DNA of 64,000 nt from Escherichia coli (GTDB taxonomy: Bacteria; Pseudomonadota; Gammaproteobacteria; Enterobacterales; Enterobacteriaceae), in assembly GCF_041886205.1 (NCBI RefSeq), contig NZ_CP169030.1; one strand, given 5' to 3'. This document shows positions 13,730-54,206 of the stretch, piece after piece. Under the pieces are notes generated by a model that was not told where the DNA came from, made no database searches, and was given only the letters and a program-made list of their open reading frames with translations. Made by a program: the position numbers and the translations under genes. Each line of letters starts with the position of its first letter. Position 1 is the first letter of the stretch.

Positions 13730-13957
13730 ATGGAAACCACCGTATTTCTCAGCAACCGCAGCCAGGCGGTCAGACTGCCAAAAGCGGTTGCATTGCCGGA
13801 AAACGTAAAACGCGTTGAAGTGATTGCTGTCGGACGAACCCGAATCATTACGCCTGCCGGAGAGACATGGGACGAATGGTTCGACGGAAACAGTGTCAGC
13901 GCTGATTTTATGGATAACAGGGAACAGCCTGGTATGCAGGAAAGGGAGTCATTCTGA
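13730..13957 (+). CDS. vagC: VagC / VapB antitoxin (AbrB/SpoVT-type)
   Basis: 75 aa; 1-nt overlap with downstream PIN toxin gene. Confidence 0.85.
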   Translation: METTVFLSNRSQAVRLPKAVALPENVKRVEVIAVGRTRIITPAGETWDEWFDGNSVSADFMDNREQPGMQERESF

Positions 13958-14355
13958 TGCTGAAGTTTATGCTCGATACCAACATCTGCATTTTTACGAT
14001 AAAGAACAAACCCGCCAGTGTCAGGGAACGTTTTAACCTGAACCAGGGGAGAATGTGCATCAGTTCGGTCACTCTGATGGAGGTGATATATGGTGCAGAA
14101 AAAAGCCAGATGCCTGAACGTAATCTCGCTGTGATCGAGGGATTTGTTTCCCGCATTGACGTTCTGGATTACGACGCTGCTGCTGCCACACACACCGGCC
14201 AGATAAGAGCAGAACTTGCCCTTCAGGGACGCCCTGTCGGGCCATTTGATCAAATGATCGCAGGTCATGCCCGCAGTCGGGGACTGATTATTGTGACTAA
14301 TAACACCCGGGAATTTGAACGTGTGGGCGGCCTGAGAATTGAAGACTGGAGTTGA
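13957..14355 (+). CDS. vagD: VagD / VapC PIN-domain toxin
   Basis: 132 aa, N-terminal MLKFMLDTNICI PIN motif, matches recalled VagD. Confidence 0.88.
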   Translation: MLKFMLDTNICIFTIKNKPASVRERFNLNQGRMCISSVTLMEVIYGAEKSQMPERNLAVIEGFVSRIDVLDYDAAAATHTGQIRAELALQGRPVGPFDQMIAGHARSRGLIIVTNNTREFERVGGLRIEDWS

Positions 14356-37690: not shown

Positions 37691-38056
37691 TCAGAGGCCA
37701 ACGACGGCCATACCCACAGCAATAAATACAGAGATGATGGCAAAACCGGCCAGGAACTTGACGTTTTTGGTCATCATGTACATGACAGCACCGACCAGAA
37801 CTTCAGCCAGAACAACCCATTTAACAACACTGGAGTCCTTACCGAAGGTCGCCTTAACCGTGGTGTTACCGCTTGCCATCAGGTCCTGACCACTGCTGCC
37901 GGCGGCCATCGCCAGCTGCGGGAAGAACATCATCAGAACAGCAGCCGGGATCACTGCGCGAGCCAGGCGAAGCATATTCAGACGAGTGAATTTGGAAAAA
38001 AACGACTTCTTTTTGACGGGCGCAGAAGCACCCTGAACACTTAAAACAGCATTCAT
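37691..38056 (-). CDS. traA: TraA propilin (F-pilin)
   Basis: 121 aa; mature pilin begins [29 protein letters not shown]. Confidence 0.97.
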
Positions 38057-38088
38057 AAGTTACCTCAATTTCGGATAAATGAATAAAA

Positions 38089-38490
38089 CTAGAGTGTATT
38101 AAATGTTATATCTTCCTCTTTATCTGCCTCCCTGAATATCTCCGAGTTATAAAAATCAGGAAACTTGATCAAATGATCAATAACTCTGTCTGCAGCCTCA
38201 TCTGTTTTACACCATCCACTACGATTTTTGGCTGCAATAAGTAGCTGGTTAGTTTCATCATCCAGACGCATTGTCAGATACTTAACCAGCGACTTACCAT
38301 AGATATTCCCTGCCCTGTTAAACTTTGGATAGCGGTGAAGATGATCTTTAAGTCTTATTACTGCCTCAAACGATCGACTTCTTCCGCTTCTGTTACTTGC
38401 CTCAATTAATAGACTTTCCACATCTACAGGTAATTTTAGTTTTACCATCTTACCTGTTGCAGAACGTGTACCAAATCTTTTCAATAACAC
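38089..38490 (-). CDS. traY: TraY (ribbon-helix-helix oriT-binding protein)
   Basis: F TraY sequence …RFGTRSATGKMVKLKLPVDVESLL…. Confidence 0.92.
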   Translation of the reverse strand: MLLKRFGTRSATGKMVKLKLPVDVESLLIEASNRSGRSRSFEAVIRLKDHLHRYPKFNRAGNIYGKSLVKYLTMRLDDETNQLLIAAKNRSGWCKTDEAADRVIDHLIKFPDFYNSEIFREADKEEDITFNTL

Positions 38491-38582
38491 CTCCCGCTGT
38501 TTATCTTCTGGTTACCACTTATGTTTGCAGAATAATCATAAAAGGTAAATAGACGGAAAGTCTATATTTTATTAACACCTTA

Positions 38583-39272
38583 TTAACGCGTATTTATGAT
38601 ACACATAGCCTTCTCGTATAAATAATAAATAAACTTTTTATTGTAGAGTAAGATAATTAACTCATCTTTATTAGAAACAGAGAAGTAGTCGCATATCAGA
38701 GATGCGTGTTTCTTTGATGTGGAGATGGATATATTTAATATTCTTGCTATAGCATTATGACTGATTCCGGTGCTATATAAGTAAAAGACATCATTTACAT
38801 ATGATGATACAGAAGAATCATCACTCATTCTTCTGATTATATTTCTGATATCATCACTGACAATCGTTTTTTGATTATAACTGTCTTTATGACGAACATG
38901 AGCAGCATCATAAAATTGCCACAGAATAATATTTCTGTGTCCATTAAGAAATGACTGGACAGATATTGTCCAGAATCTATTCTGAATAAAAACATCCTCT
39001 ACAAGATTAAGATGCGTATGCTCATTCCTATATGCTTCCATCTCTGTGACAGAGATCAATTCACAAAAATCTCTCTGCGACAGAAGCCATTTTTCAGCAC
39101 TTTGATCTTGTGTAAGAAATGACTCATGAAACAGCGTATTGCAAAAAATAAATTTTCCAGTTTCGTCCCTGATACAGGCTGGATTTGGATAATCCTGAAT
39201 AACTGCCGTCAGATTTTCCAGCAGATCTATTTGACGAGCATGTTTTTGTTGAATACGATCCATCGGATACAT
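38583..39272 (-). CDS. traJ: TraJ transfer activator
   Basis: 229 aa from MYPMDRIQQKHARQ; low-GC as in F. Confidence 0.93.
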   Translation of the reverse strand: MYPMDRIQQKHARQIDLLENLTAVIQDYPNPACIRDETGKFIFCNTLFHESFLTQDQSAEKWLLSQRDFCELISVTEMEAYRNEHTHLNLVEDVFIQNRFWTISVQSFLNGHRNIILWQFYDAAHVRHKDSYNQKTIVSDDIRNIIRRMSDDSSVSSYVNDVFYLYSTGISHNAIARILNISISTSKKHASLICDYFSVSNKDELIILLYNKKFIYYLYEKAMCIINTR

Positions 39273-39340
39273 AGGAACCTCCTCACAAAGGATTCTATGG
39301 ACAGTCGATGCAGGGAGTTCACGTCTCCCTGCATCGGCGA
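39262..39340 (+). ncRNA. finP: FinP antisense RNA (ends approximate)
   Basis: Antisense to traJ RBS; stem-loop GATGCAGGGAG…CTCCCTGCATC followed by GGCGATTTT. Confidence 0.6.
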
Positions 39341-39458
39341 TTTTCAATTTCAAATTTTAACGTGGCATTAACCACGTAATTAATATACTAATTATCTTTC
39401 GTACTGTCACCTTTTTAAATCATAAAAACTCTGATATTTGAACGAAGTCAAATTTCGT

Positions 39459-39842
39459 TTATTCATCATCATTTTTTGGAAAAAATCGTTCCATCTCAGA
39501 TGATACCTTCTCCCTGATATCTTCAACCATATTGGCATATTCAAACTTTGGATTTCCGGAGACATGAGGACTGAGAGACTCAATACCCAAAATTTTCGCT
39601 ACTGATGATTGTGTTTTTACAACGCATTCAAGAAGCAATTTATTAAACTCAGTCTGATTAAATGCAGACTCTTTACGCTCCATCTGAGCCTCATGTACAC
39701 GAAGCCCCAGTTCAAGAAGCATTGAAGCTGTTGCTGAAAAACTGACATCTTTTTCCCTTGCCCCTTCCTGTCGACGCTTCTCAATAATCGCATTTATTTT
39801 TTCATAGGCATCATTGCTGATATACAGGTTCACCTTAGCCAT
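39459..39842 (-). CDS. traM: TraM relaxosome accessory protein
   Basis: 127 aa, F TraM sequence. Confidence 0.95.
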   Translation of the reverse strand: MAKVNLYISNDAYEKINAIIEKRRQEGAREKDVSFSATASMLLELGLRVHEAQMERKESAFNQTEFNKLLLECVVKTQSSVAKILGIESLSPHVSGNPKFEYANMVEDIREKVSSEMERFFPKNDDE

Positions 39843-39849
39843 TAGAGAT

Positions 39850-40250
39850 TACCTTTTTTGAACATAAAATAAAGTTAATTTCGAAACACTAAAATTCATA
39901 ATGCAAACAGGGACGCACCGCTAGCAGCGCCCCTAGCGGTATCCTATAAAAAAACACACCGCGCCGCTAGCAGCACCCCTAATATAAAATAATGTTTTTT
40001 ATAAAAATAGTCAGTACCACCCCTACAAAACGGTGTCGGCGCGTTGTTGTAGCCGCGCCGACACCGCTTTTTTAAATATCATAAAGAGAGTAAGAGAAAC
40101 TAATTTTTCATAACACTCTATTTATAAAGAAAAATCAGCAAAAACTTGTTTTTGCGTGGGGTGTGGTGCTTTTGGTGGTGAGAACCATCAACCTGTTGAG
40201 CCTTTTTGTGGAGTGGGTTAAATTATTTCCTGATGACGTCACCAGAGGTG
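39850..40250. other. oriT: oriT, with F-type nic motif TTTGCGTGGGGTGT|GGTGCTTTTGGTGGTGAG (nic about 40164/40165) and TraM/IHF/TraY binding-region repeats
   Basis: Nic-site consensus of F; imperfect repeats GCACCGCTAGCAGCGCCCC at about 39915-39980; perfect 12-bp IR at 40036-40069. Confidence 0.85.
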
Positions 40251-40255
40251 AGAAA

Positions 40256-40765
40256 ATGAGAAAATGGCTTCTAACGATCTGCCTGATGTTTATAAATGTG
40301 ACCTGCAAGGCTGGTGATTGCTTTGATCTTGCAGGTCGGGATTACAAAATAGACCCTGACTTGCTGAGAGCGATATCATGGAAAGAATCCCGTTACCGGG
40401 TTAATGCCATTGGTATTAATCCGGTAACGGGATATGGCAGCGGATTGATGCAGGTAGACTCCCAGCATTTTAACGAACTGGCCCGCTACGGCATTAAACC
40501 GGAACATCTGACAACAGATCCCTGCATGAACATTTATACCGGTGCTTATTATCTGGCTATAGCCTTTAAAAAATGGGGCGTCTCCTGGGAGGCCGTTGGT
40601 GCATACAACGCAGGATTCAGGAAAACCGAACGCCAGAACCAGCGGCGTCTTGCCTATGCATCAGATGTTTACCGGATTTACAGCGGGATAAAAAACAGTA
40701 AGGGGATCCAGCTTCGTGCATCTGAAAAACCGCTTTCAAAAATGAACAGCTCGCAGAAGAATTAA
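40256..40765 (+). CDS. Orf169 / gene X lytic transglycosylase (P19/IagB family)
   Basis: 169 aa, signal peptide, SLT catalytic motif …AISWKESRY…. Confidence 0.9.
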
Positions 40766-41022
40766 TTTGATATACATTTTAAAAAACCGGTTATGCCGCA
40801 AACGCGGCATGGAAGGCCACACACAAAAATATCATATGAGTGATAATGCTGACTGGCCGAAGCCCCGCAAAGCGGGAACCCATCTTATATATATCCGGTA
40901 ACTGCGCAGCCTCCTGCCAGACCATTTTTCGCGGGCACAATATTTACAGACTACCGAAAAGCCAGTTGATGAAATTGAGGCATCTCAGACGACATATCAA
41001 TGCCGCATAATGATAATATAAG

Positions 41023-41050
41023 TAAAGCCCCGAAAATTTTTCGGGGCTTT
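41023..41050. terminator. Bidirectional rho-independent terminator AAAGCCCCGAAAATTTTTCGGGGCTTT
   Basis: Perfect hairpin flanked by A-run and T-run between convergent genes. Confidence 0.7.
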
Positions 41051-41060
41051 ACTTATATTA

Positions 41061-41882
41061 TCATGACTTCCACTCCCTGAACTGTTCGGCAATCATCCAT
41101 AATGCTTTGTTGATTCGGATATCACCATCAATACCCGTAATGGCTCTTGTCCTGGTATTTTTACCGGAGGCACTTCGCCCCGACAGTCCACCTTTTATCA
41201 TATTCTCCTGAACCCGCTGCCAGGTTGTCCAGAGATCGTTCTGTTTATCCTCCCAACGACGGGGAGTAATTATTTGTTCAGGCGTCACTGGTGTTTTATT
41301 TTCATCTTCATACCTGACCATCAATGCAGCTCTGCCAAATAAATGTTGCTCGTCACTGTTAAGATGTATTTCTTTCATCGCCTCCATATTATCAGTAACC
41401 TTATCAAAGACACCGAGCACTTCATACGCACCCTCGATAACCTGCCCGACAATATCACCTTTATGTGGAACGCGGATTTCGCCAAAATTATTTCCGCACA
41501 CCAGACCATTTGTGCAGACAAAACGAAAAATTCCGGGGATCATCTGATAACTGGATGAACCATCATGTGAATTAAGCAGGATAATTTCAGGAACTTCTTT
41601 CCCGTTAATATTCCCTTCCCTGCGAAGACGTAACATATGTTTACTGTATTCGCGGCGTCCCAAATCGCGAACCCGACTCTGACAGGCAAAGAACGGCTGG
41701 AAACCTTCATCACGTAACTTATTGATGATATTAATGGTTGGAATATATGTATAACGCTCACTCCGGGATTCATGTTTATCACCGGAAAAGACAGACGGCA
41801 CAAACTGCATTAATTCATCATCCGTTAAAGGACGCTCACGGCGAATGGAATTATACCGACCAAAACGGGAAGCTAATCGCAT
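41061..41882 (-). CDS. Orf273, conserved leading-region protein (DUF932-like), function unknown
   Basis: 273 aa, matches the recalled size and position of F orf273. Confidence 0.75.
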   Translation of the reverse strand: MRLASRFGRYNSIRRERPLTDDELMQFVPSVFSGDKHESRSERYTYIPTINIINKLRDEGFQPFFACQSRVRDLGRREYSKHMLRLRREGNINGKEVPEIILLNSHDGSSSYQMIPGIFRFVCTNGLVCGNNFGEIRVPHKGDIVGQVIEGAYEVLGVFDKVTDNMEAMKEIHLNSDEQHLFGRAALMVRYEDENKTPVTPEQIITPRRWEDKQNDLWTTWQRVQENMIKGGLSGRSASGKNTRTRAITGIDGDIRINKALWMIAEQFREWKS

Positions 41883-41992
41883 AACAGTAACTCCTTTATG
41901 AAGGTATAAAATTAATAAAAATTTTTTCGCGTAATATCATCCTCCCTCGGTTATCATTAACAATAAGATAACAATTCCGAGGGAAAGGACCA

Positions 41993-42289
41993 TCAAATCA
42001 GGTCAGTTCGGGACTGACCAACCTGCCGGGTGAAAAGCAGTAACAGCGCGATCAGCTCATCAGCGTTTTTTCTGACAAGAGGGGTATGATTCTCCAGGCT
42101 ATCCAGTAAGTCATGCAGCTCATTATTGACCTGGTGGAGCACCTTAAAAAGCGCCCCTGAATCCTGGTTGCTCTGATAGGCGAGACTGGCCTTAACAGCG
42201 TTATTCTGCATGATCCCGATTTGTGCGATTGCGTCTTTCTGCTGATCGCCTGTTGGCTGATAAGTGGTGTTAAAAGAAAATGCGCTCAT
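41993..42289 (-). CDS. Conserved leading-region small protein (orf95-like), function unknown; first gene after repeat A
   Basis: 98 aa; SD AGGAG; paralog of 43829-44074 (shared GDQQKDAIxQIxIMQ motif). Confidence 0.7.
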   Translation of the reverse strand: MSAFSFNTTYQPTGDQQKDAIAQIGIMQNNAVKASLAYQSNQDSGALFKVLHQVNNELHDLLDSLENHTPLVRKNADELIALLLLFTRQVGQSRTDLI

Positions 42290-42309
42290 GTTTCATTCTC
42301 CTGTGTCTG

Positions 42310-43030
42310 ATGTTTTCAGCCCCCATCATCTGTTGAGTTTCGGGAGCCGCGGTTTTGACGTTTTGCGGGGACCTGCTCTTTGCTCCCTCCGGTATTCACC
42401 ATCACCTGTTTGAGAACCTTCGCCGCATGGGGCATCACTGCCACGGCCGGAAACGACTGTCCGGGGGCAGACCGCAAAAGTTTTTGCCTGCTTTTGGGCA
42501 AAAAGTTTTGCGGGATGTGCATTTCACCCCTGGACTGGCGGAGACGGTTGTGGCTGTCTATGCCCCCGGCGACAGGGGCTTAAACAGGTGAATCGCACCG
42601 GACAGAACAACGGGCAGGGACCCGCCGCAACGACGTGAAGCGCGGTTTGCGAAACGGCGTTGCTCCTTACATCCCGGCGTCTTTTTGCCGGGATGCCGGG
42701 AGCGCAGGTCACGGCGCGACAAGGGTGGCGCGACCGTTCCGGTCGCTGAAAACCCGGGTTTTTGCGTCAGGGATGGAAGCCGCCAGGGCGGAGACAGCTC
42801 CGCTGGCTCCGTTCACGACAGCCCGCCCCGCCAGGGGGACGCCCGGAAAAGGCACTGCCAGGAGAACAACAAAACAGAGAGTAATCAGAGCAGCAGAAAA
42901 AAGAAGAACAGTAGCAGGAACCGCAACATCATCAGTAACAGACAAATGACAGGTCTGAAAAGACAGAAGCCCACAGCAGAACGTCCGCGTAATGAAAGGG
43001 GCGGCGCGTCAGCGCGGCCTTTTTTACCAG
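42310..43030 (-). repeat. Leading-region structured repeat copy A (candidate ssDNA promoter, Frpo/ssi-like)
   Basis: One of four direct copies; extensive dyad symmetry; abuts RBS of 41993-42289. Confidence 0.6.
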
Positions 43031-43066
43031 CACTGACACCGTGTGCCAGTGCAGCCTCTGGCGACG

Positions 43067-43381
43067 CTACAGCGCTGCCAGTTCATTCAGGATATGGGGG
43101 TTTCGCTCAACCATTTTCATCAGCAGGATGGCTTGTTTATTAGGTTTAGCCAGTCCCTGCTCCCAGTTCTGCAGGGTAGTGACGCCGGTATGTAAATACT
43201 GTGCGAAAACAGCCTGTGATAGCTTCAATTTTTCGCGTACCGCTTTCACCTCATCGGGCGTCATAGTGACGGGTTTTGCGCTGACCTTGTGTGTTCTCAA
43301 AGTTTTTTTGCCAGCATTAAACTCTCCCCACGCAGCCATGCCTTCCTGCAATTCGCTAAAAATATCACGATCTTTCATCAA
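43067..43381 (-). CDS. HigA-like HTH (XRE-family) antitoxin
   Basis: 104 aa with C-terminal HTH; 4-nt overlap (ATGA) with upstream toxin gene. Confidence 0.75.
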   Translation of the reverse strand: MMKDRDIFSELQEGMAAWGEFNAGKKTLRTHKVSAKPVTMTPDEVKAVREKLKLSQAVFAQYLHTGVTTLQNWEQGLAKPNKQAILLMKMVERNPHILNELAAL

Positions 43382-43716
43382 CGCCCCCTTCGTCTGGCCT
43401 GTTCAAGCATTTCGCGTAAAATATCGCGCTGTGCTTTCGTCAAATCATCTTTCTGGTCTTTGTCATACAGGGTGAACAACAGAAAGTGGGATTTTTCCAG
43501 ATACCAGTAGTAAATCACTCTGATGCCGCCGCGTTTCCCCTTGTTACGCCTTGCATCCCCAAACCGTACCTTGCGCAATCCCCCGGTATGCTGGATAACA
43601 TCACCGCATAACGGATTTTTCAGCAACATCTGCTGAAACTCCCGAAACTCATCATCCGTGAAATATTCAGCACGATGCCGCTCGAACGGCGGCAACTCGA
43701 CAAATAGTGCTTCCAT
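43378..43716 (-). CDS. HigB/RelE-superfamily toxin (addiction-module killer protein)
   Basis: 112 aa with …KGKRGGIRVIYYW…LLFTLYDKDQKDDLT… motif typical of HigB-like toxins; toxin-first gene order. Confidence 0.75.
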   Translation of the reverse strand: MEALFVELPPFERHRAEYFTDDEFREFQQMLLKNPLCGDVIQHTGGLRKVRFGDARRNKGKRGGIRVIYYWYLEKSHFLLFTLYDKDQKDDLTKAQRDILREMLEQARRRGR

Positions 43717-43828
43717 AACACCTCACAAAATCCCCTTTACTTGGGGATATTATACCCCCCAACATGGGGACTCTTCAATTGAGTTCAGACAAAACCTCCT
43801 GCTTTAGCAAGCGTTTCATAGTGCCCAA

Positions 43829-44074
43829 TCAGAAGTTCCAGCCCATCCGCTTTTTTTTGAAAACGGCTGTATGTGAAACCATCGCATCGATCAGTGCATC
43901 AAGCTCTGCGCGGAGCTCCAGTATCCTGGTTGTAAACGTATTTTTGCCCTGGCTGGTCATCCAGTTTAAATATGCCTGTACCGCGCGTTCCTGCATGATT
44001 TCGATTTGGGTAATAGCATCTTTTTGCTGATCGCCAGCAGATTTAAAATTTTTTCTGAAAACAAATGCCCCCAT
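43829..44074 (-). CDS. Hypothetical small protein, paralog of 41993-42289
   Basis: 81 aa sharing GDQQKDAI(A/T)QI(G/E)IMQ motif. Confidence 0.55.
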   Translation of the reverse strand: MGAFVFRKNFKSAGDQQKDAITQIEIMQERAVQAYLNWMTSQGKNTFTTRILELRAELDALIDAMVSHTAVFKKKRMGWNF

Positions 44075-44142
44075 TTTAATTTCTCCTGTGTTCTGTAATA
44101 CCTGGATATCCGGGTAAAGGGGCGTTTACGCCCCCCGCTGAT

Positions 44143-44475
44143 TTACATGTTCTGCTCGCTATGTATTCTTCTATTCACAATTGAAAATAAATGTTTTTTT
44201 TGCGATATCACTTTTCTTTTTATAATTCGCACAATTTCAGGCATCGACTTGTTCAGGGGGATCCATGCAGTATCCCCGTTCAGTTCATCATATACACACC
44301 CATAGATATGAAGCATTCCGTTCATTACAAAGCAGTACATTGAAAAATGTTCATATTTTTTCTCCGCACTGATTAACTGAAAATAACCTTTTATTAAACC
44401 CTGTTTCGGTGAAGGATTAATTAACCAGCCATTATCCAAAGATAAACAAATATGCTCAATTATTTTCTTTTCCAT
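44143..44475 (-). CDS. Hypothetical protein in low-GC segment
   Basis: 110 aa ORF, AT-rich island, followed by hairpin terminator at about 44100-44125. Confidence 0.45.
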   Translation of the reverse strand: MEKKIIEHICLSLDNGWLINPSPKQGLIKGYFQLISAEKKYEHFSMYCFVMNGMLHIYGCVYDELNGDTAWIPLNKSMPEIVRIIKRKVISQKKHLFSIVNRRIHSEQNM

Positions 44476-44529
44476 ATTTACTCCAACGAAAGCTTTATCC
44501 TAATTAATGGGGCATTGCCGCCCCTTGTG

Positions 44530-44799
44530 TTAAATGGCGTAGCCTCTTATCTGACTCAAAAACTGTTTGAAGTGATCAGCTTCCGCAATGTTGATATGGC
44601 GGAACTGCGTATCCACACCCCGGCTGAGCGCGTAGCTATAGCTGAAAGCCATCTTTTCCGGGTGGCTTTTGCGATATTTTTTCAGCTCATTCAGACTGCT
44701 GAACTCCAGGAGGTCCCACTCTTCTCGGGTGTTTTTTTTCTTTTCGGCAACAAGAAGCGTGTACGACGCGGTGTTAACGTGGATATTTCGGGTACTCAT
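44530..44799 (-). CDS. Hypothetical protein, first gene after repeat B
   Basis: 89 aa; SD upstream abutting repeat B. Confidence 0.5.
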   Translation of the reverse strand: MSTRNIHVNTASYTLLVAEKKKNTREEWDLLEFSSLNELKKYRKSHPEKMAFSYSYALSRGVDTQFRHINIAEADHFKQFLSQIRGYAI

Positions 44800-44814
44800 C
44801 CTGCTTTCTCCTCT

Positions 44815-45420
44815 CTCTGGTTTTCAGCCCCCATCATCTTTTGAGTTTCGGGAGCCGCGGTTTTGACGTTTTGCGGGGACCTGCCTTTTGTTCCCTCCGG
44901 TATTAACCATCACCTTTTTGAGAACCTTCGCCGCAAGGGGCATCACTGCCACGGCCTGACGCACCTGTCCTGGGCAGAACGCAAAATTTTTTACCGGGTT
45001 CTGGGTAAAAAATTTTGTGGGCTGTTCATTTACCCTGGACAGTCAGTGCGGCAGGTTGTGGCTGTATCAGCCCCCGGCGACAGGGGCTTAAACAGGTGTA
45101 TGGCACCGGACACAACAACGGGCAGGGACCCGCCGCAACGACGTGAAGCGCGGTTTGCGAAACGGCGTTGCCCCTTACATCCCGGCGGCCTTTTGCCGGG
45201 ATGCCGGGAGCGCAGGCCACGGCGCGACAGAGGCGGCGCGACCGGAACGGTCGCTGCAAGCCCGGGGTTTCGCGTCAGGGATGGAAGCCCGCCAGGGCGG
45301 AGACAGCTCCGCTGGCTCCGTTCACGACAGCCCGCCCCGCCAGGGGGACGCCCGGAAAAGGCATAAGCAGGAGAACAACAAAACAGACAATAATCAGGGC
45401 AGCAGTAATCAGAGTCAGAA
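44815..45420 (-). repeat. Leading-region structured repeat copy B
   Basis: Direct copy of repeats A/C/D. Confidence 0.6.
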
Positions 45421-45697
45421 CAGGAGGAAAAAGAGAATAATCAAAGGGAAGGTGATGTGATTTCTGACAGGTCATAAACAGAGAAGGCGGGGGAAAAGAA
45501 CGGGCGCCGCAGGCGCACGTTCATCCCCGTTCCCGGAGGGAAACGGCCTTCCTGGCAGTCTGGTTGTTCATGCCCGTACAATGCCAGCAAGGAGAAAGGG
45601 GCCACCGGCGAACCAGCAGCCCCTTTATAAAGGCGCTTCAGTGCAGTCAGACCAGCATCAGCCCTGAAAAGGCGGGCCTGCGCCCGCCTCCAGGTTG

Positions 45698-45856
45698 CTA
45701 CTTACCGGATTCGTAAGCCATGAAAGCCGCCACCTCCCTGTATCCGTCTCTGTAACGAATCTCGCACAGCGATTTTCGTGTCAGATAAGTGAATATCAAC
45801 AGTGTGAGACACACGATCAACACACACCAGACAAGAGAGCTGCGTGGTAGTTTCAT
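45698..45856 (-). CDS. hok: Hok-family toxin (flmA/hok) with overlapping mok-like ORF to 45997
   Basis: 52 aa [52 protein letters not shown]; hairpin terminator 45668-45690. Confidence 0.9.
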
Positions 45857-46130
45857 GGCCTTCTTCTCCTTGCGCAAAGCGCGGTAAGAGGCTATCCTGA
45901 TGTTGTCTAAGCATGCAGGGGCCTCGTGGGTTAATGAAAAATTAACTACGGGGCTTTTGTCCTTCTGCCACACAACACGGCAACAAACCACCTTCACGTC
46001 ATGAGGCAGAAAGCCTCAAGCGCCGGGTACATCATAGCCCATATCCCTGCACGCTGACCACACTCACTTTTCCTGAAAATAACCCGCTCACTCAGGCTGT
46101 TTACGGGTAATCTGTGTGATTGTTGCCGCA

Positions 46131-46849
46131 TCACGCTGCCTCCCGGAGTTTGTTCGGCACCATCCACCGCTCCATCTCACGGACAGCGTGACCGGCCTCT
46201 CTTGCTGCAAGACTGGCTTCCGCAATAACCTGCCAGAACGGCATATCCTGCCACTGCCAGCGTTCCATTCCGGCCAGTGACGGAAAACGCTCGCCCCACT
46301 GCCAGAACAGGGTTTCCAGGTCATGCTCTGCCACCCGGTCACTCCAGCGTGCATGCCAGCTTCCGACTGTTTCCGGCGAATGGAATGCCAGTTCGATTTC
46401 AGCCTGAGCGACCAGCGCCTGGTACGCACGGGCTTTCTGCTCTGCCTCCCGTGCCTGCTGGCGGCTGTACTTCTGCATGACCAGCGCGGATTTATGGCGA
46501 CTGCGCTCCCTGACACGAAACCGCACCGACGGAAACAACCGCTCTGCTGCATCACCAGGAAGGGGAAGGAGGCAGACCTCGCCCTGTGTTTCAATCAGCA
46601 CATCGATGGCATACAGCCACTGAAGACGGTTGCCGTGCAGTTCTTCTGCGGTCAGGGACGGCATGAAAAATCGCAGGTCAGACAGCGATATCCTGCGGCT
46701 TCCGTTCAGACAGCGGAAAAACGCCCCCGCATACGGATATTCGCCAGCGTGTTACCCTGATGGCGGCGTTTTTCTGTCTCCGCCACCGCCCGCCATGCGG
46801 CCTGTTGCTCTGTGCTGAGGGGAACCAGTGCCTGTGAACGTACGCTCAT
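46131..46849 (-). pseudogene. psiA: psiA (plasmid SOS inhibition A), apparent frameshift near 46742
   Basis: N-terminal 36 codons ([43 protein letters not shown]) are in a different frame from the remaining PsiA body (from …EYPYAGAFFRCLNG…). Confidence 0.7.
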
Positions 46850-47280
46850 ACCTGACCTCCTTCCGCCATCAGGATATGGATGATGTCGTTAACGCTGTAC
46901 CCCTGCGTATCCAGTGACGCCGCCAGTGCCAGTGAATGACTGACGGCTTCCGGTGCAAACCGCCGCTGTACCTGAACCACCGCAAACGGCTCACCACCGG
47001 CATTCACCAGAACCAGCACCCAGACCTGAGAGACATCGCCCGGTGAACATAACGCCAGGTGAAAACGTTCGTGAGCAGGCGTGAAACGGACCTGGACGGG
47101 GGAAAAGCCGCCAAACTCGCTGCCATACTCGCCGTTCATCGTCCAGTTATCCGGCGCATCCAGCTCCCGCATCACGGCATGTGTGAGTTCACGACGTTCA
47201 TCACTTCCGACAGCCCGGATGTCTTCATATTCCTGTGCGCTCATGGTCTGTAATACATTCAGGGTCAGTTCAGTTTTCAT
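46846..47280 (-). CDS. psiB: PsiB, anti-SOS (RecA inhibitor)
   Basis: 144 aa [12 protein letters not shown]…; stop abuts psiA start. Confidence 0.93.
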
Positions 47281-47334
47281 CACGGTATCTCCCTTGCTGC
47301 CGCCCCGTCTCCGGCGGGGCGGTGTGGTTGTTCA

Positions 47335-49293
47335 TCAGGCGGCATCAGCCAGGTTATCGGTGCGTTCAGTGGTATCCGTCTGTGGATGTGGTGCACACAT
47401 CCAGCCAGGCACCCAGCGGTTGTCTTTCATATGGTGCTCTGCATGTTCAGCCGCATCGCTTTTCTTCATCTTCTCCGCGTCCCGTGCGGCACCGGACAGT
47501 CCGGCGTCATTCAGGGCGTCGATAATCTGCGGCTTTTTCAGGTGTCCGAAGAAGTTTGCTTTTGTCGGCTGCCACCAGTCACGCATGTGGAATCCGATAG
47601 CGGTTTCCAGCGAGTCAAGCGGACTGCGTGACGTGTGACCACACTCACGGGTCTGGACACCGTTAAGGCTGCATGCGGTGCAGAAACTGAGCAGGGACAA
47701 CAACACCTCCTGGCGGAGTGACAGGAACGTCGTCATGTCCCGTGACCATCCCTCCGCCAGCAGGGCTGCAAGACGGGCTTTTTCTGCCATCAGCGCCATG
47801 AATGCGGCACCTTCCTTCCCCGACGGCGCATCGCTGGTCAGCGAAGAATGCCCACATTCCAGACGAATTTTTGCGGGATTGCTGTACGCTCCGCTGCCAA
47901 ACACATTCAGGCAGAGCGTCCATGCCAGCAGTGCCAGGGATTTGTCCGGCTGCTGCATCAGTGCTGCCTGGACTGCCAGCGTGCGTTCGGAAGACATTTT
48001 CGTCAGCAGCGGCAGACTGATTTCCTCCACTGACGCTTTTTCCTGCACCTGTTCCGTGCGGTCAGCGTCGTCAGCCGCATCATCCTCACTGCGTAACTGC
48101 ACACCACGCTGGACACATACGTTTCCATAACGCCAGGACACCACCACGCCACTTCCGGCACGCATCTCCGGCGTCCACGCCCTGACCTTCGCCATGCAGT
48201 CAATCAGCTTCATTTCTGCTTCCGGCAGGTCGGATTCCTCACACTGGTTTTCCAGCGCGTCGTAACGAGCCATCAGTTCGTTCAGGCGTTCGTCTTCCGC
48301 CTCCGTCAGCACCGCTTCCGGCTCCGGCAGACTGCGGTATGCCCGGGCATCTTCACGGCACTCACCGACAGGCTCCATGCGTCCGGCGCACCATCCCCAG
48401 CCTTCGGCTTCCCGAAGGAACTCTGCGACAGCCTGGAGTTTTTCCAGCAGGGCAGCATCGAGCGCCACGCAGTCCACATAGCCACCCTCGTTGTCGCTGA
48501 ACAAATCGGTGCGCAGTTCATCTGGCGAGAAGGCATCAGCCCCCACGAAGCGGAATTTACTGTTCCCCGCCACCGCCACTTCACTTTCGGTCACCAGACG
48601 ACGAATGGTCTGTACTTCCGGTTTTCCGCCCCATCCCGACTGACAGGCAGCTTCAAACACCTGTACCTGACGCGCGGTGTCGTTCTCCAGCGCCAGCGCC
48701 TGACAGTGCTCTGTGGTGATGCGGTCTTCTGCCAGCGCATCGAGGATGACAGGCGCAAGGTCAGCCAGTTTCAGCATTCGCTGAACGTGGCGAGGCGAAT
48801 AACCCAGCAAATCACCGATTTGTGCAGGTGTTTTGCCTTCCTGCGCCATTGCGCGGAATCCGGCAATCTGTTCAGCAGGGTGCATATCCCGACGATGACC
48901 GTTCTCGGTCATCGATGCAGCCGTCGCCAGTTCCTGCGGAATAATTTTCACGCGGACAGGCCAGTCAGCCGGAATGATGCCACGTTCTGCCAGCATATTG
49001 AGTGCTGCCAGTCTGCGACCACCTGCGGCGACACCGTAGCGGTCACCAGGCAGGGCATGAACAACCAGATTCTGCAGCAGGCCGACACCTTTAATTGACT
49101 CCGCCAGTTCGCTGACGGACTCCACAGAATACGGCACCGTGCGCACATTCAGCGGTGATTTAATCAGTGAAGCCAGCGGCACGCTCACTTCCTCCGTCTG
49201 CGCCAGCAGGGCAGACAGTGCCGTTTCCTGTGTTTTTGACAGTTTACGGCTGGATTTACGCCCCGTTTTTGCCTTAGACTCTGTAACTGACAT
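47335..49293 (-). CDS. ParB-like nuclease-domain protein of leading region (orf652-like)
   Basis: 652 aa; N-terminal ParB/Srx-like motif (…GLLQNLVVH…GGRRLAA…). Confidence 0.8.
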   Translation of the reverse strand: MSVTESKAKTGRKSSRKLSKTQETALSALLAQTEEVSVPLASLIKSPLNVRTVPYSVESVSELAESIKGVGLLQNLVVHALPGDRYGVAAGGRRLAALNMLAERGIIPADWPVRVKIIPQELATAASMTENGHRRDMHPAEQIAGFRAMAQEGKTPAQIGDLLGYSPRHVQRMLKLADLAPVILDALAEDRITTEHCQALALENDTARQVQVFEAACQSGWGGKPEVQTIRRLVTESEVAVAGNSKFRFVGADAFSPDELRTDLFSDNEGGYVDCVALDAALLEKLQAVAEFLREAEGWGWCAGRMEPVGECREDARAYRSLPEPEAVLTEAEDERLNELMARYDALENQCEESDLPEAEMKLIDCMAKVRAWTPEMRAGSGVVVSWRYGNVCVQRGVQLRSEDDAADDADRTEQVQEKASVEEISLPLLTKMSSERTLAVQAALMQQPDKSLALLAWTLCLNVFGSGAYSNPAKIRLECGHSSLTSDAPSGKEGAAFMALMAEKARLAALLAEGWSRDMTTFLSLRQEVLLSLLSFCTACSLNGVQTRECGHTSRSPLDSLETAIGFHMRDWWQPTKANFFGHLKKPQIIDALNDAGLSGAARDAEKMKKSDAAEHAEHHMKDNRWVPGWMCAPHPQTDTTERTDNLADAA

Positions 49294-49356
49294 ATATTTC
49301 TCCTTTGACCGGGATGGTTGTATGTCTGCCGGACGCGTTCCCGTCCGGCACCTCTC

Positions 49357-49632
<276 letters not shown>

Positions 49633-49646
49633 TCACAATCAGTCGT

Positions 49647-50186
49647 TCAGAACGGGATATCGTCTGAAAACCCGTAATCCTCACCCTCTGGCGGTTGCGG
49701 CTGAGGCTCCGGCTGCGCGGCCTTACGTCCACGGCCTTTCGTTTTCGCGCCTCCTTTTTTCGTACCTGCCTCCGCCAGTGGTTCCAGCTGAGGCTGACCG
49801 CTGAACTGTTGCGCCTCTTCCGGCTGAGTCTGAGCACCTGCGGCACGTCCCAGCATCTGCATGGTGCCCGTGGTCTTAACAAGAATTTCAGTGACGTAAC
49901 GGGTGATACCGTTATCTTCCCAGCTACGGGTGCGAAGCTGGCCTTTGATGTAGACCTGCGCGCCCTTACGCAGATATTCACCTGCCACTTCCGCGAGCTT
50001 GCCGAACAGCACCACGCGATGCCATTCTGCCTGCTCCCGCATCTCCCCCGTCTGTTTGTCACGCCAGCTTTCTGACGTGGCCACCTGCAGGTTTGCCACT
50101 GCGCCCCCGTTGGGGATGTAACGGACTTCCGGATCTTTTCCCAGGCGTCCTACGAGAATGACCTTGTTAATGCCACGAACTGCCAT
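49647..50186 (-). CDS. ssb: Plasmid single-strand DNA-binding protein
   Basis: [23 protein letters not shown]… OB-fold and acidic C-terminal DDIPF tail; SD AGGAG. Confidence 0.95.
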
Positions 50187-50204
50187 GATGTGTCTCCTTC
50201 TGTT

Positions 50205-50930
50205 GATGTTTTCAGCCCCCATCATCTGTTGAGTTTCGGGAGCCGCGGTTTTGACGTTTTGCGGGAACCTGCTGCTGTATTCCCTGTGGTATGAACTTCA
50301 CCCGTTTGAGAACCTTCGCCGCAAGGGGCATCACTGCCACGGCCTGACGCCCCTGTCCTGGGCAGAACGCAAAATTTTTTACCGGGTTCTGGGTAAAAAA
50401 TTTTGTGGGCTGTTCATTTACCCTGGACAGTCAGTGCGGCAGGTTGTGGCTGTATCAGCCCCCGGCGACAGGGGCTTAAACAGGTGAATGGCACCGGACA
50501 CAACAACGGGCAGGGACCCGCCGCAACGACGTGAAGCGCGGTTTGCGAAACGGCGTTGCGCCTCACATCCCGGCGGCCTTTTGCCGGGATGCCAGGAGCG
50601 CAGGCCACGGCGCGACAGAGGCGGCGCGACCGGAACGGTCGCTGCAAGCCAGGGTTTCGCGTCAGGGATGGAAGCCCGCCAGGGCGGAGACAGCTTCGCT
50701 GGCTCCGTTCACGACAGCCCGCCCCGCCAGGGGGACGCCCGGAAAAGGCATAAGCAGGAGAACAACAAAACAGACAGTAATCAGAGCAGCAGAAAAAAGA
50801 AGAACAGGAGCAGTAGCAGGAACAACATCATCAGTAACAGACAAATGACAGGTCTGAAAAGACAGAAGCCCACAGCAGAATGTCCACGTAATGTAAGGGG
50901 CGGCGCGTCAGCGCGGCCCCTTTCACGCCA
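50205..50930 (-). repeat. Leading-region structured repeat copy C (immediately upstream of ssb)
   Basis: Direct copy; abuts ssb RBS. Confidence 0.6.
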
Positions 50931-53245: not shown

Positions 53246-53479
53246 AATTTAGCCTCTTATGACGTTAATTAATGAAACCGTAAAGACTGTTCGTGCAGTC
53301 TCTGCGGTGTGGATTAAGCAGGTCCCTGACCTGCTTTTTTCATATCTGCATCTGACGCTTTCCGGTGTTTTCCTCCTTCTGTTCCTGCGTTCTCATTACC
53401 TGCCAGCCGGATGACTGACAGAACAAATAAATGCGTATTGCCGGAGCCTGAAATAAATCCTGATTTTTAAAGAACATCA

Positions 53480-54010
53480 CCCGTTGAGTTTCGGGAGCCG
53501 CGGTTTTGACGTTTCGCGGGAACCTGCTGCTGTATTCCCTGTGGTATGAACTTCACCCGTTTGAGAACCTTCGCCGCAAGGGGCATCACTGCCACGGCCT
53601 GACGCACCTGTCCTGGGCAGAACGCAAAATTTTTTACCGGGTTTTGGGTAAAAAATTTTGTGGGCTGTTCATTTACCCTGGACAGTCAGTGCGGCAGGTT
53701 GTGGCTGTATCAGCCCCCGGCGACAGGGACTCATACGGGTGTGTGGCACCCGGCAGGCAATGAGCAGGGACCCGCTGCAACGACGTGAAGCGCGGTTTGC
53801 GAAACGGCGTTGCTCCTTACATCCCGGCGGCCTTTTGCCGGGATGCCAGGAGCGCAGGCCACGGCGCGACAAGGGCGGCGCGACCGTTCCGGTCGCTGCA
53901 AGCCGGGGGTTTTGCGTCAGGGATGAAAGCCCGCCAGGGCGGAGACAGCTCCGCTGGCTCCGTTCACGACAGCCCGCCCCGCCAGGGGGACGCCCGGGAA
54001 AGCCATAAAC
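53480..54010 (-). repeat. Leading-region structured repeat copy D
   Basis: Direct copy (left end diverged). Confidence 0.6.
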
Positions 54011-54206
54011 AGGAGAGGAACGGAAAGAAGAGGAAGAAGAACAGTAACCACAGAAACATAACATCAGGAAAAAACATTCCGGACACATCACAAACGGGAA
54101 GGGAAGCGGGCGACGCGCCAGCGTGGCCCGCTTCCCTTCCGGCAGGCGCCAGCCTGCCAGGGGTTTTCGCGCGGGCTGACAGGCGGCCTCCACCGCCTGC
54201 CCTGTA

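Follow-up and report, generated by a model that had tools for sequence, protein, structure and literature searches.

The gene pair at positions 43067–43716 of the 64-kb stretch of DNA analyzed here (hereafter, the window) most probably acts as a functional type II toxin–antitoxin (TA, or addiction) module of the HigB-2/HigA-2 family, a reading to which we assign a probability of about 0.85. The pair is a real and ordinary TA of this family, well studied in Vibrio cholerae, and it occurs in the leading region of an E. coli IncF (F-type) plasmid, the part transferred first into a new cell, as the last cargo of an extra cassette with a Frpo single-strand promoter repeat on either side. The evidence for this reading comes from the homology of both partners to structurally solved proteins, from an intact promoter with a candidate operator, and from the conservation of the two genes across plasmids.

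According to the list of open reading frames (ORFs), the two genes lie on the minus strand at the positions given in the original prediction and in the toxin-first order that it described, with the higB2-like toxin gene (43378–43716, 112 aa, ATG start) directly followed by the higA2-like antitoxin gene (43067–43378), a layout that is the same in all relatives compared. Shine–Dalgarno sequences are present for the pair, the one preceding the toxin ATG being GAGGTG. Although the toxin-first operon was thus correctly anticipated, the 4-nt overlap proposed along with it most likely has to be reduced to 1 nt. The antitoxin ORF opens at an in-frame TTG at 43381, which would give 104 aa if counted from that codon, and the junction between the two genes reads ...CGT TGA TGA AAG.... 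We favor the ATG at 43378 because it aligns with Met1 of V. cholerae HigA-2 and because PGAP places the start at the same ATG in related plasmids (312-nt gene), so that the antitoxin product is likely of 103 aa, with a TGATG overlap of 1 nt between the two genes.

In a phmmer search of the PDB, the toxin matched V. cholerae HigB-2 (5ja8, 5ja9, and 8a0x; E 1.6e-27) over residues 1–108 of its 112, and BLASTP gave an identity of 50% between the two proteins; since this is a full-length identity to a crystal structure, we take the fold as settled. Four active-site residues of VcHigB2, namely R51, R64, Y82, and K84, have each been demonstrated by alanine substitution (PMC5416850), and all four are kept here, where they correspond to R51, R66, Y84, and K86 in the phmmer alignment. 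The family assignment rests on the PDB match and on a match to PHROG 5869 (E 5e-32), because the toxin returned no match among NCBIfam models and because its Pfam match, to PF06296, was marginal (E 4.9e-4). Judged on these alignments, the toxin is a RelE-fold ribosome-dependent mRNA endonuclease homologue of HigB-2.

The antitoxin is homologous to the cognate partner in the same way, its PDB matches by phmmer being to HigA-2 (5j9i, 5jaa, and 8a0w; E 3.2e-24) over residues 1–102, with an identity of 42%. This alignment includes the N-terminal 33 residues, which supports the division of the protein into an N-terminal toxin-binding segment and a C-terminal helix-turn-helix (HTH) domain of the XRE/MqsA type. 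Pfam recognizes the second of these, with PF15731 covering residues 31–100 only (E 4.3e-10) and HTH_3 matching at E 7.9e-7, and the antitoxin further matches PHROG 2104 (E 7e-26). The model TIGR03830 scored 53.5 for a cutoff of 61.8, and only over its positions 60–126, that is to say its HTH half. RefSeq labels the two proteins “toxin” and “MqsA family antitoxin”. The description of the locus as a HigBA-type pair, combining a RelE-superfamily toxin with an HTH antitoxin, is therefore borne out by the full-length PDB matches to HigB-2/HigA-2 and by the Pfam HTH domain; when the pair is compared to the HigBA and RelBE families as the original prediction had proposed, HigB-2/HigA-2 are matched full length and Rts1 HigBA and RelE are not.

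Upstream of the toxin gene, a promoter scan identified a sigma-70-type promoter on the minus strand (43749–43778), with 10 of 12 consensus matches, in which the −35 box TTGAAG (43778–43773) is separated by an 18-nt spacer from the −10 box TATAAT (43754–43749). The −10 box is invariant in 7/7 close relatives and the −35 box is kept in all of them but a decayed copy from Serratia proteamaculans. The spacer holds a palindrome, TCCCCA-tgt-TGGGG (43757–43770, minus strand), hereafter O1, which is the only site of its type in the 64-kb window and is placed like the VcHigA2 operator that has been footprinted (PMC11006873). We propose this in silico palindrome as a candidate operator for HigA2 autorepression. 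A second half-site, or imperfect inverted repeat, could form a further site O2 (43727–43751, minus strand; AATATCCCC-N7-GGGGATTTT), which overlaps the −10 box and the start region and whose arms of 9 nt are 89% complementary according to an inverted-repeat search. The symmetry of O1 is kept in relatives: it reads TATCCCCAataTGGGGATA in Erwinia and Salmonella Newport and undergoes a two-sided change in Serratia (ATACCCAAcTTGGGTAT), alongside which the O2 half-site ATCCCCAA becomes ATACCCAA in S. marcescens. This two-sided change coincides with a substitution in the antitoxin at the position that aligns with Arg68, a base-contacting residue of VcHigA2; this position is occupied by Thr here and by Lys/Arg in Serratia, a co-variation between operator and antitoxin that is seen in one lineage only. 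The operator cannot be the one of Vibrio, because three of the four base-contacting residues of VcHigA2 differ in the antitoxin, where T, Q, and L replace R, E, and R. As for a wider HigA2 regulon, it was dismissed, the half-site count being at chance level in the 64 kb.

Promoter, candidate operator, both genes, and a short 3′ tail together form a portable module of ~750 bp (43043–43792, minus strand) shared with other plasmids. Its limits are given by megablast matches to K. aerogenes, Salmonella, and one E. coli plasmid, which start from ~43000 or 43043 and all end at 43792, and by an alignment in which similarity to relatives is lost ~14 nt upstream of the −35 box. The exact proteins of the pair already occur in NCBI on hundreds of contigs, an identical protein being found on 224, and in 8/8 examined contigs with this identical toxin the pair occupies the same slot. 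Both genes are under strong purifying selection, with dN/dS values against orthologues of 0.02–0.16 for the toxin and 0.04–0.11 for the antitoxin, and the one relative lying outside a transfer context combines a decaying toxin with an intact antitoxin.

These observations bear on the alternative that the locus is an inactive remnant, with ORFs decaying or silent. That the module can decay is indicated by its relative on an S. proteamaculans plasmid, where a stop codon stands at the position of Arg66 and the −35 box is lost. In the window, however, ORFs, promoter, Shine–Dalgarno sequences, and catalytic residues are all intact, and neither the low dN/dS of both genes nor the distribution of an identical protein over so many contigs is what a remnant would display, so that we find this alternative hardly credible.

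If the pair is a functional addiction module, its mode of action can be proposed from characterized homologues. HigB2 would have the fold of RelE nucleases, enter the A site of the ribosome, and cleave mRNAs under translation. The N-terminal segment of HigA2 would wrap the toxin, displacing its C-terminal helix and turning the catalytic arginine, here Arg66, away from the active site, and the C-terminal HTH dimer would bind the palindrome between the −35 and −10 boxes of its own sigma-70 promoter and thereby autorepress the operon. With the antitoxin as the presumably more labile partner, loss of the plasmid or of the segment would leave leftover toxin to arrest the cell, which amounts to post-segregational killing. 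Christensen-Dalsgaard and Gerdes reportedly found in 2006 that the V. cholerae loci stabilize plasmids. Cleavage of mRNA has been demonstrated for V. cholerae HigB2 (PMC5416850), post-segregational killing for the HigBA system of the conjugative plasmid pYR4 (PMC11429247), and ribonuclease activity, autoregulation, and stabilization of an unstable plasmid for HigBA2 of A. baumannii, the deletion of higBA2 from pAB120 having nonetheless failed to destabilize that plasmid (PMC5906591). Here too the added stability benefit may be small, because the plasmid already has hok/sok and vagCD. These are distinct loci, as had been stated: sok is at 45854–46025 and the VagC/VagD-like pair, called from its translated sequence alone, at 13730–14355.

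The position of the pair within the plasmid was established from its distance to the origin of transfer. The nic motif of F, which we take to be GCGTGGGGTGT/GGTGCTTT, has a single exact match in the window, on the plus strand at 40154–40172 (0 expected by chance), and the same motif is found in the F oriT between gene X and traM in the record used here as F plasmid reference (NC_002483.1). Since the motif is on the plus strand, this strand is the transferred one and the direction of entry is fixed. On one side of nic are traM, FinP, and the traJ leader (39266–39842), and beyond it come DUF932, hok/sok, psiB, a ParB-like gene, and ssb. The pair is therefore located within the leading region, as originally predicted, at 2.9–3.55 kb into it, and the transferred strand is the template of its minus-strand genes.

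It is also located, again as predicted, between two copies of a direct repeat of ~730 nt that occurs four times in the window (42297–43027, 44805–~45535, 50193–50926, and 53448–54021). These repeats are homologues of F Frpo1/Frpo2 at 85–96% identity, and it is on this homology and on a hairpin that their identification as Frpo rests, because a simple consensus scan for −35/−10 boxes rebuilt in the Frpo stem gave nothing convincing. Copy 1 (42297–43027, plus strand) directly adjoins the TA pair on its downstream side and has the YgeA-like orf98 and a DUF932 (YgeB-like) gene downstream of itself; it is 92.9% identical to F Frpo1, with hairpin homology at 42337–42655. Copy 2 (44805–45535, plus strand; direct-repeat families D1–D3) lies upstream of the cassette whose last cargo is the pair, and its identity to F is 93.8% for the Frpo1 and 96.2% for the Frpo2 region. 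In a single-stranded DNA fold, its hairpin of ~320 nt in the plus (transferred) strand (~44845–45163) has a dG of −184 kcal/mol and a z of −7.7, and it would drive minus-sense transcripts.

Between this hairpin and the pair, over 1.13 kb, are three co-oriented small ORFs of the minus strand, orf89 (44530–44799), orf110 (44143–44475), and orf81 (43829–44074), the last being a YgeA paralogue 39% identical to orf98. Searches of PHROGs, NCBIfam, and PADLOC gave no match for any of the three or for the YgeA-like ORF. A megablast search of PLSDB showed orf89 to be common in IncF plasmids and did not find orf110 and orf81. A search for intrinsic terminators after higA2 or between Frpo and higB2 returned only a weak 5-bp stem with a short T-run (43798–43811).

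On this basis, the suggestion that the pair would be one of the first loci expressed in a new host is plausible. It agrees with the transferred strand being the template and with the lack of a convincing terminator below the Frpo hairpin, and has against it that the mobile unit, as conserved, includes a double-strand sigma-70 promoter of its own and that leading regions are not the only setting of its relatives, which also occur in an IncI-like plasmid (between trbA and excA), on a megaplasmid of Pantoea, and in Serratia amid metabolic genes. As part of the addiction reading, transcripts started at the Frpo hairpin while the entering DNA is single-stranded would probably cover the pair along with the three ORFs upstream of it; after second-strand synthesis, the pair would be maintained from its own autoregulated promoter, so that addiction would be set up very early.

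Such a timing could also give the pair an additional role, not exclusive of the former, as an insurance of plasmid establishment: in the first minutes after entry, the Frpo burst would load the recipient with the HigB2–HigA2 complex and, were the plasmid then destroyed by restriction, CRISPR, or failed replication, HigA2 would decay and HigB2 would arrest the recipient, a retaliation that penalizes rejection of the plasmid. Frpo gives early and transient expression in F (PMC9849209), and leading regions show an enrichment of TA genes, with coding on the T-strand, for which this mechanism was proposed in 2024 (PMC11541004); post-segregational killing, anti-defense, and abortive infection were all published there as hypotheses for leading-region TA genes, the retaliatory idea being printed in its Supplementary Discussion, and the same paper shows a higB–higA pair in a Salmonella island (Fig. 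2a). The constancy of the slot occupied by the identical module, the presence of close relatives in leading regions of plasmids from K. aerogenes and Salmonella, and a relative on an Erwinia MOBP plasmid that adjoins methyltransferase, antirestriction, and DUF932 genes all point in this direction. However, the only promoter in the conserved unit is a double-strand one, and in two contigs (L008 and L009) an IS66 element stands in place of the upstream Frpo with the TA pair intact; the relatives outside leading regions likewise fit this role poorly. Moreover, killing a cell once the plasmid is destroyed brings no direct benefit to the plasmid, only kin or population effects, and the literature searched contained no experiments in support of a type II TA from a leading region. 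We thus regard this added role as possible but rather unlikely. Somewhat less likely still is its most specific form, in which higB2–higA2 would be transcribed on the incoming strand by Frpo copy 2 in a matter of seconds to minutes, and recipients that later degrade the plasmid (restriction/CRISPR) or delete the cassette (Frpo-to-Frpo) would be shut down by HigB2.

The second of these outcomes can also be considered on its own. Copies 1 and 2 flank the cassette as direct repeats at a spacing of 2508 bp, and homologous recombination from Frpo to Frpo would delete it; since higA2 would be lost with it, the cell would be arrested and the cargo of the leading region locked in. The arrangement hok–Frpo–ygeA–ygeB without the cassette, found in F and many other IncF plasmids, is the expected remnant of such a deletion, although it fits equally well with a cassette that was never acquired. 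The V. cholerae homologue is itself located in the superintegron, and TA cassettes have been proposed to stabilize the array of the Vibrio superintegron. That a TA locus guards its segment between Frpo repeats was also argued by Couturier et al. for flmAB, which lies between Frpo1 and Frpo2 (PMC9849209). Yet the two copies are only 72–88% identical in ungapped register, which would lower RecA-mediated recombination, the three ORFs to be protected have no known value, and no deletion derivatives were identified, so that a guarding function for the cassette seems improbable to us.

Finally, the pair might serve in defense or competition, either as an anti-phage abortive infection system or as an anti-addiction device whose antitoxin neutralizes related toxins, be they from the recipient or from rival plasmids. 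Type II TA systems are indeed able to serve both phage defense and plasmid competition (PMC11541004), phages encode relatives of both proteins (PHROG 5869 and 2104), and HigB2-family toxins, present on 903 of 72,556 plasmids, would make rival carriers common. Against this, more distant members of the family are only ~40–45% identical, which would make cross-neutralization unlikely, no copy of the module was found by megablast in the chromosomes of 5,426 complete E. coli genomes, and no sensor or phage-trigger component is adjacent to the pair. As for a PADLOC defense system, it was set aside, the toxin having no match at E<=0.01 and the antitoxin just a pair of weak matches to HTH-type models (E 0.003 and 0.006). 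Altogether, we hold such a role to be very improbable.

With the addiction module retained as the preferred reading, the gain is first one of annotation, a vaguely labeled pair being placed in a family whose structures are solved and whose mechanism is known. From a broader perspective, the leading regions of IncF plasmids are seen to consist of exchangeable cassettes, each made of a Frpo repeat and its cargo, one of which ends here in a self-contained 750-bp addiction module; coming in addition to hok/sok and vagCD, this third addiction system bears on plasmid persistence in E. coli. The locus also offers a natural test case for the published idea that TA genes of leading regions aid establishment or punish rejecting recipients, for which tools already exist in the F plasmid (Frpo deletions and sfGFP fusions). 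If true, an insurance fired by Frpo would be the first type II TA demonstrated as a retaliatory anti-defense device in conjugation, the demonstration alone being new. Overall, the scientific payoff is modest.

As a matter of fact, the pair can be situated among known systems by what it shares with each of them. RelBE was rejected on the toxin-first order, on an XRE-type HTH where RelB is a ribbon-helix-helix protein, and on the absence of E. coli RelE from the PDB matches at E<=1. The MqsR/MqsA label of RefSeq finds an echo in the C-terminal HTH of the antitoxin, which resembles that of MqsA (PF15731 at 4e-10; PDB 3FMY at 3e-8), but this family was rejected as well: the antitoxin has no cysteine and so lacks the N-terminal zinc CxxC domain, TIGR03830 is below its cutoff, and the toxin is not MqsR-like, MqsR being absent from its PDB matches at E<=1. 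HigB/HigA of Rts1 (Proteus vulgaris) shares the toxin-first order, a RelE-superfamily toxin, an HTH antitoxin, and plasmid addiction; PvHigB nevertheless has no C-terminal helix, and the action of its antitoxin does not involve a disordered segment at the N terminus (PMC5416850). An Rts1-type HigBA was accordingly rejected, no PvHigB or PvHigA chain appearing in the PDB search at E<=1 for the toxin and E<=0.1 for the antitoxin. With flmAB/hok-sok of the F leading region, one locus of which is also in the window (sok), the pair has in common its situation as a TA locus between Frpo repeats, and flmAB has been proposed to safeguard the leading region of F (PMC9849209); these are however type I systems, in which the antitoxin is an RNA and the toxin acts at the membrane, unlike the pair in both sequence and mechanism.

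Closer are the plasmid-borne HigBA2Ab of A. baumannii pAB120 and HigBA of Y. ruckeri pYR4, which belong to the same toxin family at ~43–47% identity (tblastn), have had their toxicity and its neutralization demonstrated (PMC5906591, PMC11429247), and sit in maintenance or “stability” regions, whereas the pair sits between Frpo repeats beside oriT; both modules are more distant from it than the Vibrio pair is. V. cholerae HigB-2/HigA-2 (PDB 5JA8, 5JA9, 5JAA, 5J9I, 8A0W, and 8A0X) differs in being carried by a cassette of a chromosomal superintegron rather than by a plasmid leading region, and in its operator, TGTACGC-N5-GCGTACA as opposed to the candidate TCCCCA-N3-TGGGG. In other respects it is the system that the pair resembles most: both partners are full-length homologues of nearly equal size (112 vs. 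110 aa and 103 vs. 104 aa) in toxin-first order, the toxins share a RelE-like R/R/Y/K site and an IIYY-type beta-3 segment (VIYY here), the antitoxins share an N-terminal neutralizing segment followed by a C-terminal HTH, and in both a palindromic site follows the −35 box and reaches the −10.

The best-supported reading of the gene pair, in our analysis, is that of an ordinary HigBA2-type addiction module. The ORF listing places on the minus strand a 112-aa toxin gene with an ATG start (43378-43716) and, directly downstream, an antitoxin ORF opened by TTG (43067-43381); the original prediction had delineated both ORFs in this way, with a 4-nt overlap. At their junction (...CGT TGA TGA AAG...), an ATG at 43378 has one base in common with the toxin stop codon (TGATG). 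Because this ATG aligns with Met1 of Vibrio cholerae HigA-2 (MKDRDIF vs MSNRDLF), and because the annotated 312-nt antitoxin gene of related plasmids begins at the same position, the antitoxin most likely comprises 103 aa and overlaps the toxin by 1 nt, so that the ORFs stand as predicted and the 4-nt overlap probably does not. Both genes are preceded by Shine-Dalgarno sequences (GAGGTG and AGGGGG).

The search against HigBA/RelBE families that had been proposed as a check bore out the suspected HigB/HigA-like nature of the pair, both proteins returning full-length matches among Protein Data Bank sequences: the toxin to V. cholerae HigB-2 (5JA8, 5JA9, 5JAA, 8A0X; E 1.6e-27, residues 1-108, 50% identity), and the antitoxin to HigA-2 (5J9I, 5JAA, 8A0W; E 3.2e-24, residues 1-102, 42% identity). 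At E<=1, all chains matched by the toxin are HigB-2, and E. coli RelE, Rts1 HigB and MqsR are absent from these matches. The toxin has no match in NCBIfam and a marginal one in Pfam (PF06296, E 4.9e-4). The active site of HigB-2 was mapped by alanine substitution to Arg51, Arg64, Tyr82 and Lys84 (PMC5416850), whose aligned counterparts in the window toxin are R51, R66, Y84 and K86, while the sliding beta-3 segment reads IIYY in the Vibrio protein and VIYY here. As for the RefSeq label "MqsA family antitoxin", we consider it imprecise: the MqsA signal in Pfam and TIGRFAM comes from the C-terminal HTH alone, with a score under the curated cutoff, and the antitoxin contains no cysteine, which makes the MqsA zinc domain impossible. 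A role in phage defence, for its part, finds no positive support. Against the PADLOC defence models the toxin has no match and the antitoxin weak generic HTH matches alone. The toxin and the antitoxin also match phage-protein families (PHROG 5869 and 2104), both of unknown function.

The pair is preceded on the minus strand by a sigma-70-type promoter (43778-43749; TTGAAG, 18 nt, TATAAT; 10 of 12 positions matched), whose -10 box is identical in all seven close relatives. Between the -35 and -10 boxes lies a candidate operator, the palindrome TCCCCA-tgt-TGGGG (43757-43770), a single such site within the 64-kb window. This candidate operator becomes ATCCCCAtgtTGGGGAT in another E. coli plasmid and TATCCCCAataTGGGGATA in Erwinia and Salmonella Newport, both still palindromic, and ATACCCAAcTTGGGTAT in S. 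marcescens, where C-to-A in one arm is mirrored by G-to-T in the opposite arm and where a third half-site, beyond the -10 box, is altered likewise. Serratia antitoxins carry Lys or Arg in place of Thr at the residue aligned to the base-contacting Arg68 of VcHigA2, the Vibrio antitoxin. Autorepression of the pair through this palindrome thereby gains reasonable in silico support, from one co-varying lineage. In V. cholerae, the operator (TGTACGC-N5-GCGTACA) is placed likewise with respect to the promoter but differs in sequence (PMC11006873), which fits the fact that three of the four base-contact residues of VcHigA2 differ in the window antitoxin.

With regard to its setting, the pair is found on an IncF-type plasmid with tra genes on the minus strand and with FinP and the traJ leader at 39266-39377. 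The F nic motif, which is also present in F oriT, has one exact match in the window, on the + strand at 40154-40172; on this basis, the + strand is the one transferred. It enters 5' to 3', in the direction of higher coordinates, and is the template from which minus-strand genes of the leading region are transcribed. At 2.9-3.55 kb from the nick, the pair is in the leading region as anticipated, and between two repeats, also as anticipated. These belong to a ~730-nt repeat with four copies (42297-43027, 44805 to ~45535, 50193-50926 and 53448-54021), each of which shares 85-96% identity with the single-strand promoter regions Frpo1 and Frpo2 of F, a plasmid with two where the window has four. 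On the + strand, copy 2 is predicted to form a ~320-nt hairpin (dG -184 kcal/mol, z -7.7), and from there to higB2 the only terminator-like signal is a weak 5-bp stem with a short T-run. With the transferred strand as template, a measured distance to nic and an Frpo homologue upstream, expression of the pair from single-stranded DNA is plausible.

F is laid out as hok, Frpo1, ygeA, ygeB, and the window as hok/sok, Frpo copy 2, orf89, orf110, orf81, higB2, higA2, Frpo copy 1, orf98 (YgeA-like) and a DUF932 gene (YgeB-like), so that the window has one additional cassette and one additional Frpo copy. Two further roles are compatible with this anatomy and, if true, would be more interesting than plain addiction: the pair may penalise recipients that destroy the incoming plasmid, or it may protect the cassette from being deleted when the Frpo repeats on either side recombine, as Couturier et al. 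argue for flmAB (PMC9849209). Every Frpo copy ends in an AGGAGA ribosome-binding site followed by its own distinct cargo genes, and the leading region resembles a chain of interchangeable units that each join a promoter repeat to a cassette. Just upstream of the pair, orf81 (43829-44074, minus) has a paralogue at 39% identity in orf98 (41993-42289, minus), itself in the position of F ygeA, the deletion of which strongly reduces conjugation (PMC9849209); neither has a family match in PHROGs, NCBIfam or PADLOC. While orf89 (44530-44799) occurs in about 2,580 IncF plasmids, megablast did not find 43793-44545 (orf81 and orf110) in 72,556 PLSDB plasmids, and these two ORFs are rare leading-region cargo. 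[quoted passage not shown] The vagCD locus mentioned in the original prediction was recognised by reading the translation alone (VapBC-type, PIN-domain; 13730-14355, + strand), and the window holds at least three addiction systems (hok/sok, higBA2 and the VagC/VagD-like pair).

From a distribution perspective, DNA similarity to other plasmids is limited to about 43000/43043-43792, so that the portable unit is made of promoter, operator and both genes. Among the 72,556 plasmids of PLSDB, megablast found this module in only 5, and among 5,426 complete genomes of E. coli in 3, plasmid-borne every time, and identical proteins in NCBI occur on 224 contigs for the toxin ("toxin [Escherichia coli]") and 84 for the antitoxin ("MqsA family antitoxin"). 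In all eight contigs examined, the pair occupies one slot, adjoining DUF932, SLT, oriT and traM, with variable small ORFs upstream; one of them (AATCPR010000021.1, 81.7 kb, GCA_012715495.1) matches the window at 100% identity from 38000 to 49716 (11.7 kb). In two of the eight contigs, which carry the identical toxin, an IS66-family element directly upstream of higB2 has taken the place of the upstream Frpo and of all else in the leading region, and expression of the intact pair there has to come from its own promoter. Close relatives (82-97% nucleotide identity) are leading-region genes on an IncFII plasmid of K. aerogenes and on an F-type plasmid of Salmonella. More distant ones (~60-64% protein identity) vary in setting: on an Erwinia MOBP plasmid the neighbours are methyltransferase, antirestriction and DUF932 genes, on an IncI-like plasmid the relative lies between trbA and excA, and on a Pantoea megaplasmid it is surrounded by metabolic genes; the HigB2-type family overall spans 903 plasmids, small Acinetobacter plasmids being the commonest. 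As a mobile unit, the module is of general purpose, and leading regions are a recurrent but not exclusive home for it.

Comparison with orthologues from five further plasmids gives a dN/dS of 0.02-0.16 for the toxin gene and of 0.04-0.11 for the antitoxin gene. One relative, situated among metabolic genes of the S. proteamaculans plasmid NZ_MT039190.1, has a toxin pseudogene (7313-7651) in which TGA stands in place of the codon for the catalytic Arg66; its -35 box is lost as well, and its antitoxin is intact. Loss of the toxin first, with the antitoxin left intact, is the usual decay route of such modules, and this plasmid exemplifies an orphan antitoxin emerging outside a transfer region. By contrast with this decayed copy, the window copy is maintained.

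If the pair behaves like its homologues, the toxin would cleave mRNA in a ribosome-dependent manner, the N-terminal segment of the antitoxin would neutralise it, the HTH domain would autorepress the operon, and the outcome would be post-segregational killing. RefSeq already annotates the two genes as a toxin–antitoxin pair, and our literature search found no paper on this IncF HigBA2 orthologue. Its kind of context is known, as toxin–antitoxin genes are enriched on the T-strand of leading regions, beside Frpo promoters, a higB-higA pair being among the published examples and the three candidate roles being killing on failed establishment, mobile-element competition and host-toxin neutralisation (PMC11541004). 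Its family is known as well, from structural and mechanistic work on Vibrio HigB-2/HigA-2 (PMC5416850, PMC11006873), from an A. baumannii module with ribonuclease activity and autoregulation that stabilises an unstable plasmid (PMC5906591), and from Y. ruckeri pYR4, whose HigB-2-like pair mediates post-segregational killing (PMC11429247). The window pair is an uncharacterised addition to this family, of low surprise beside these known systems.
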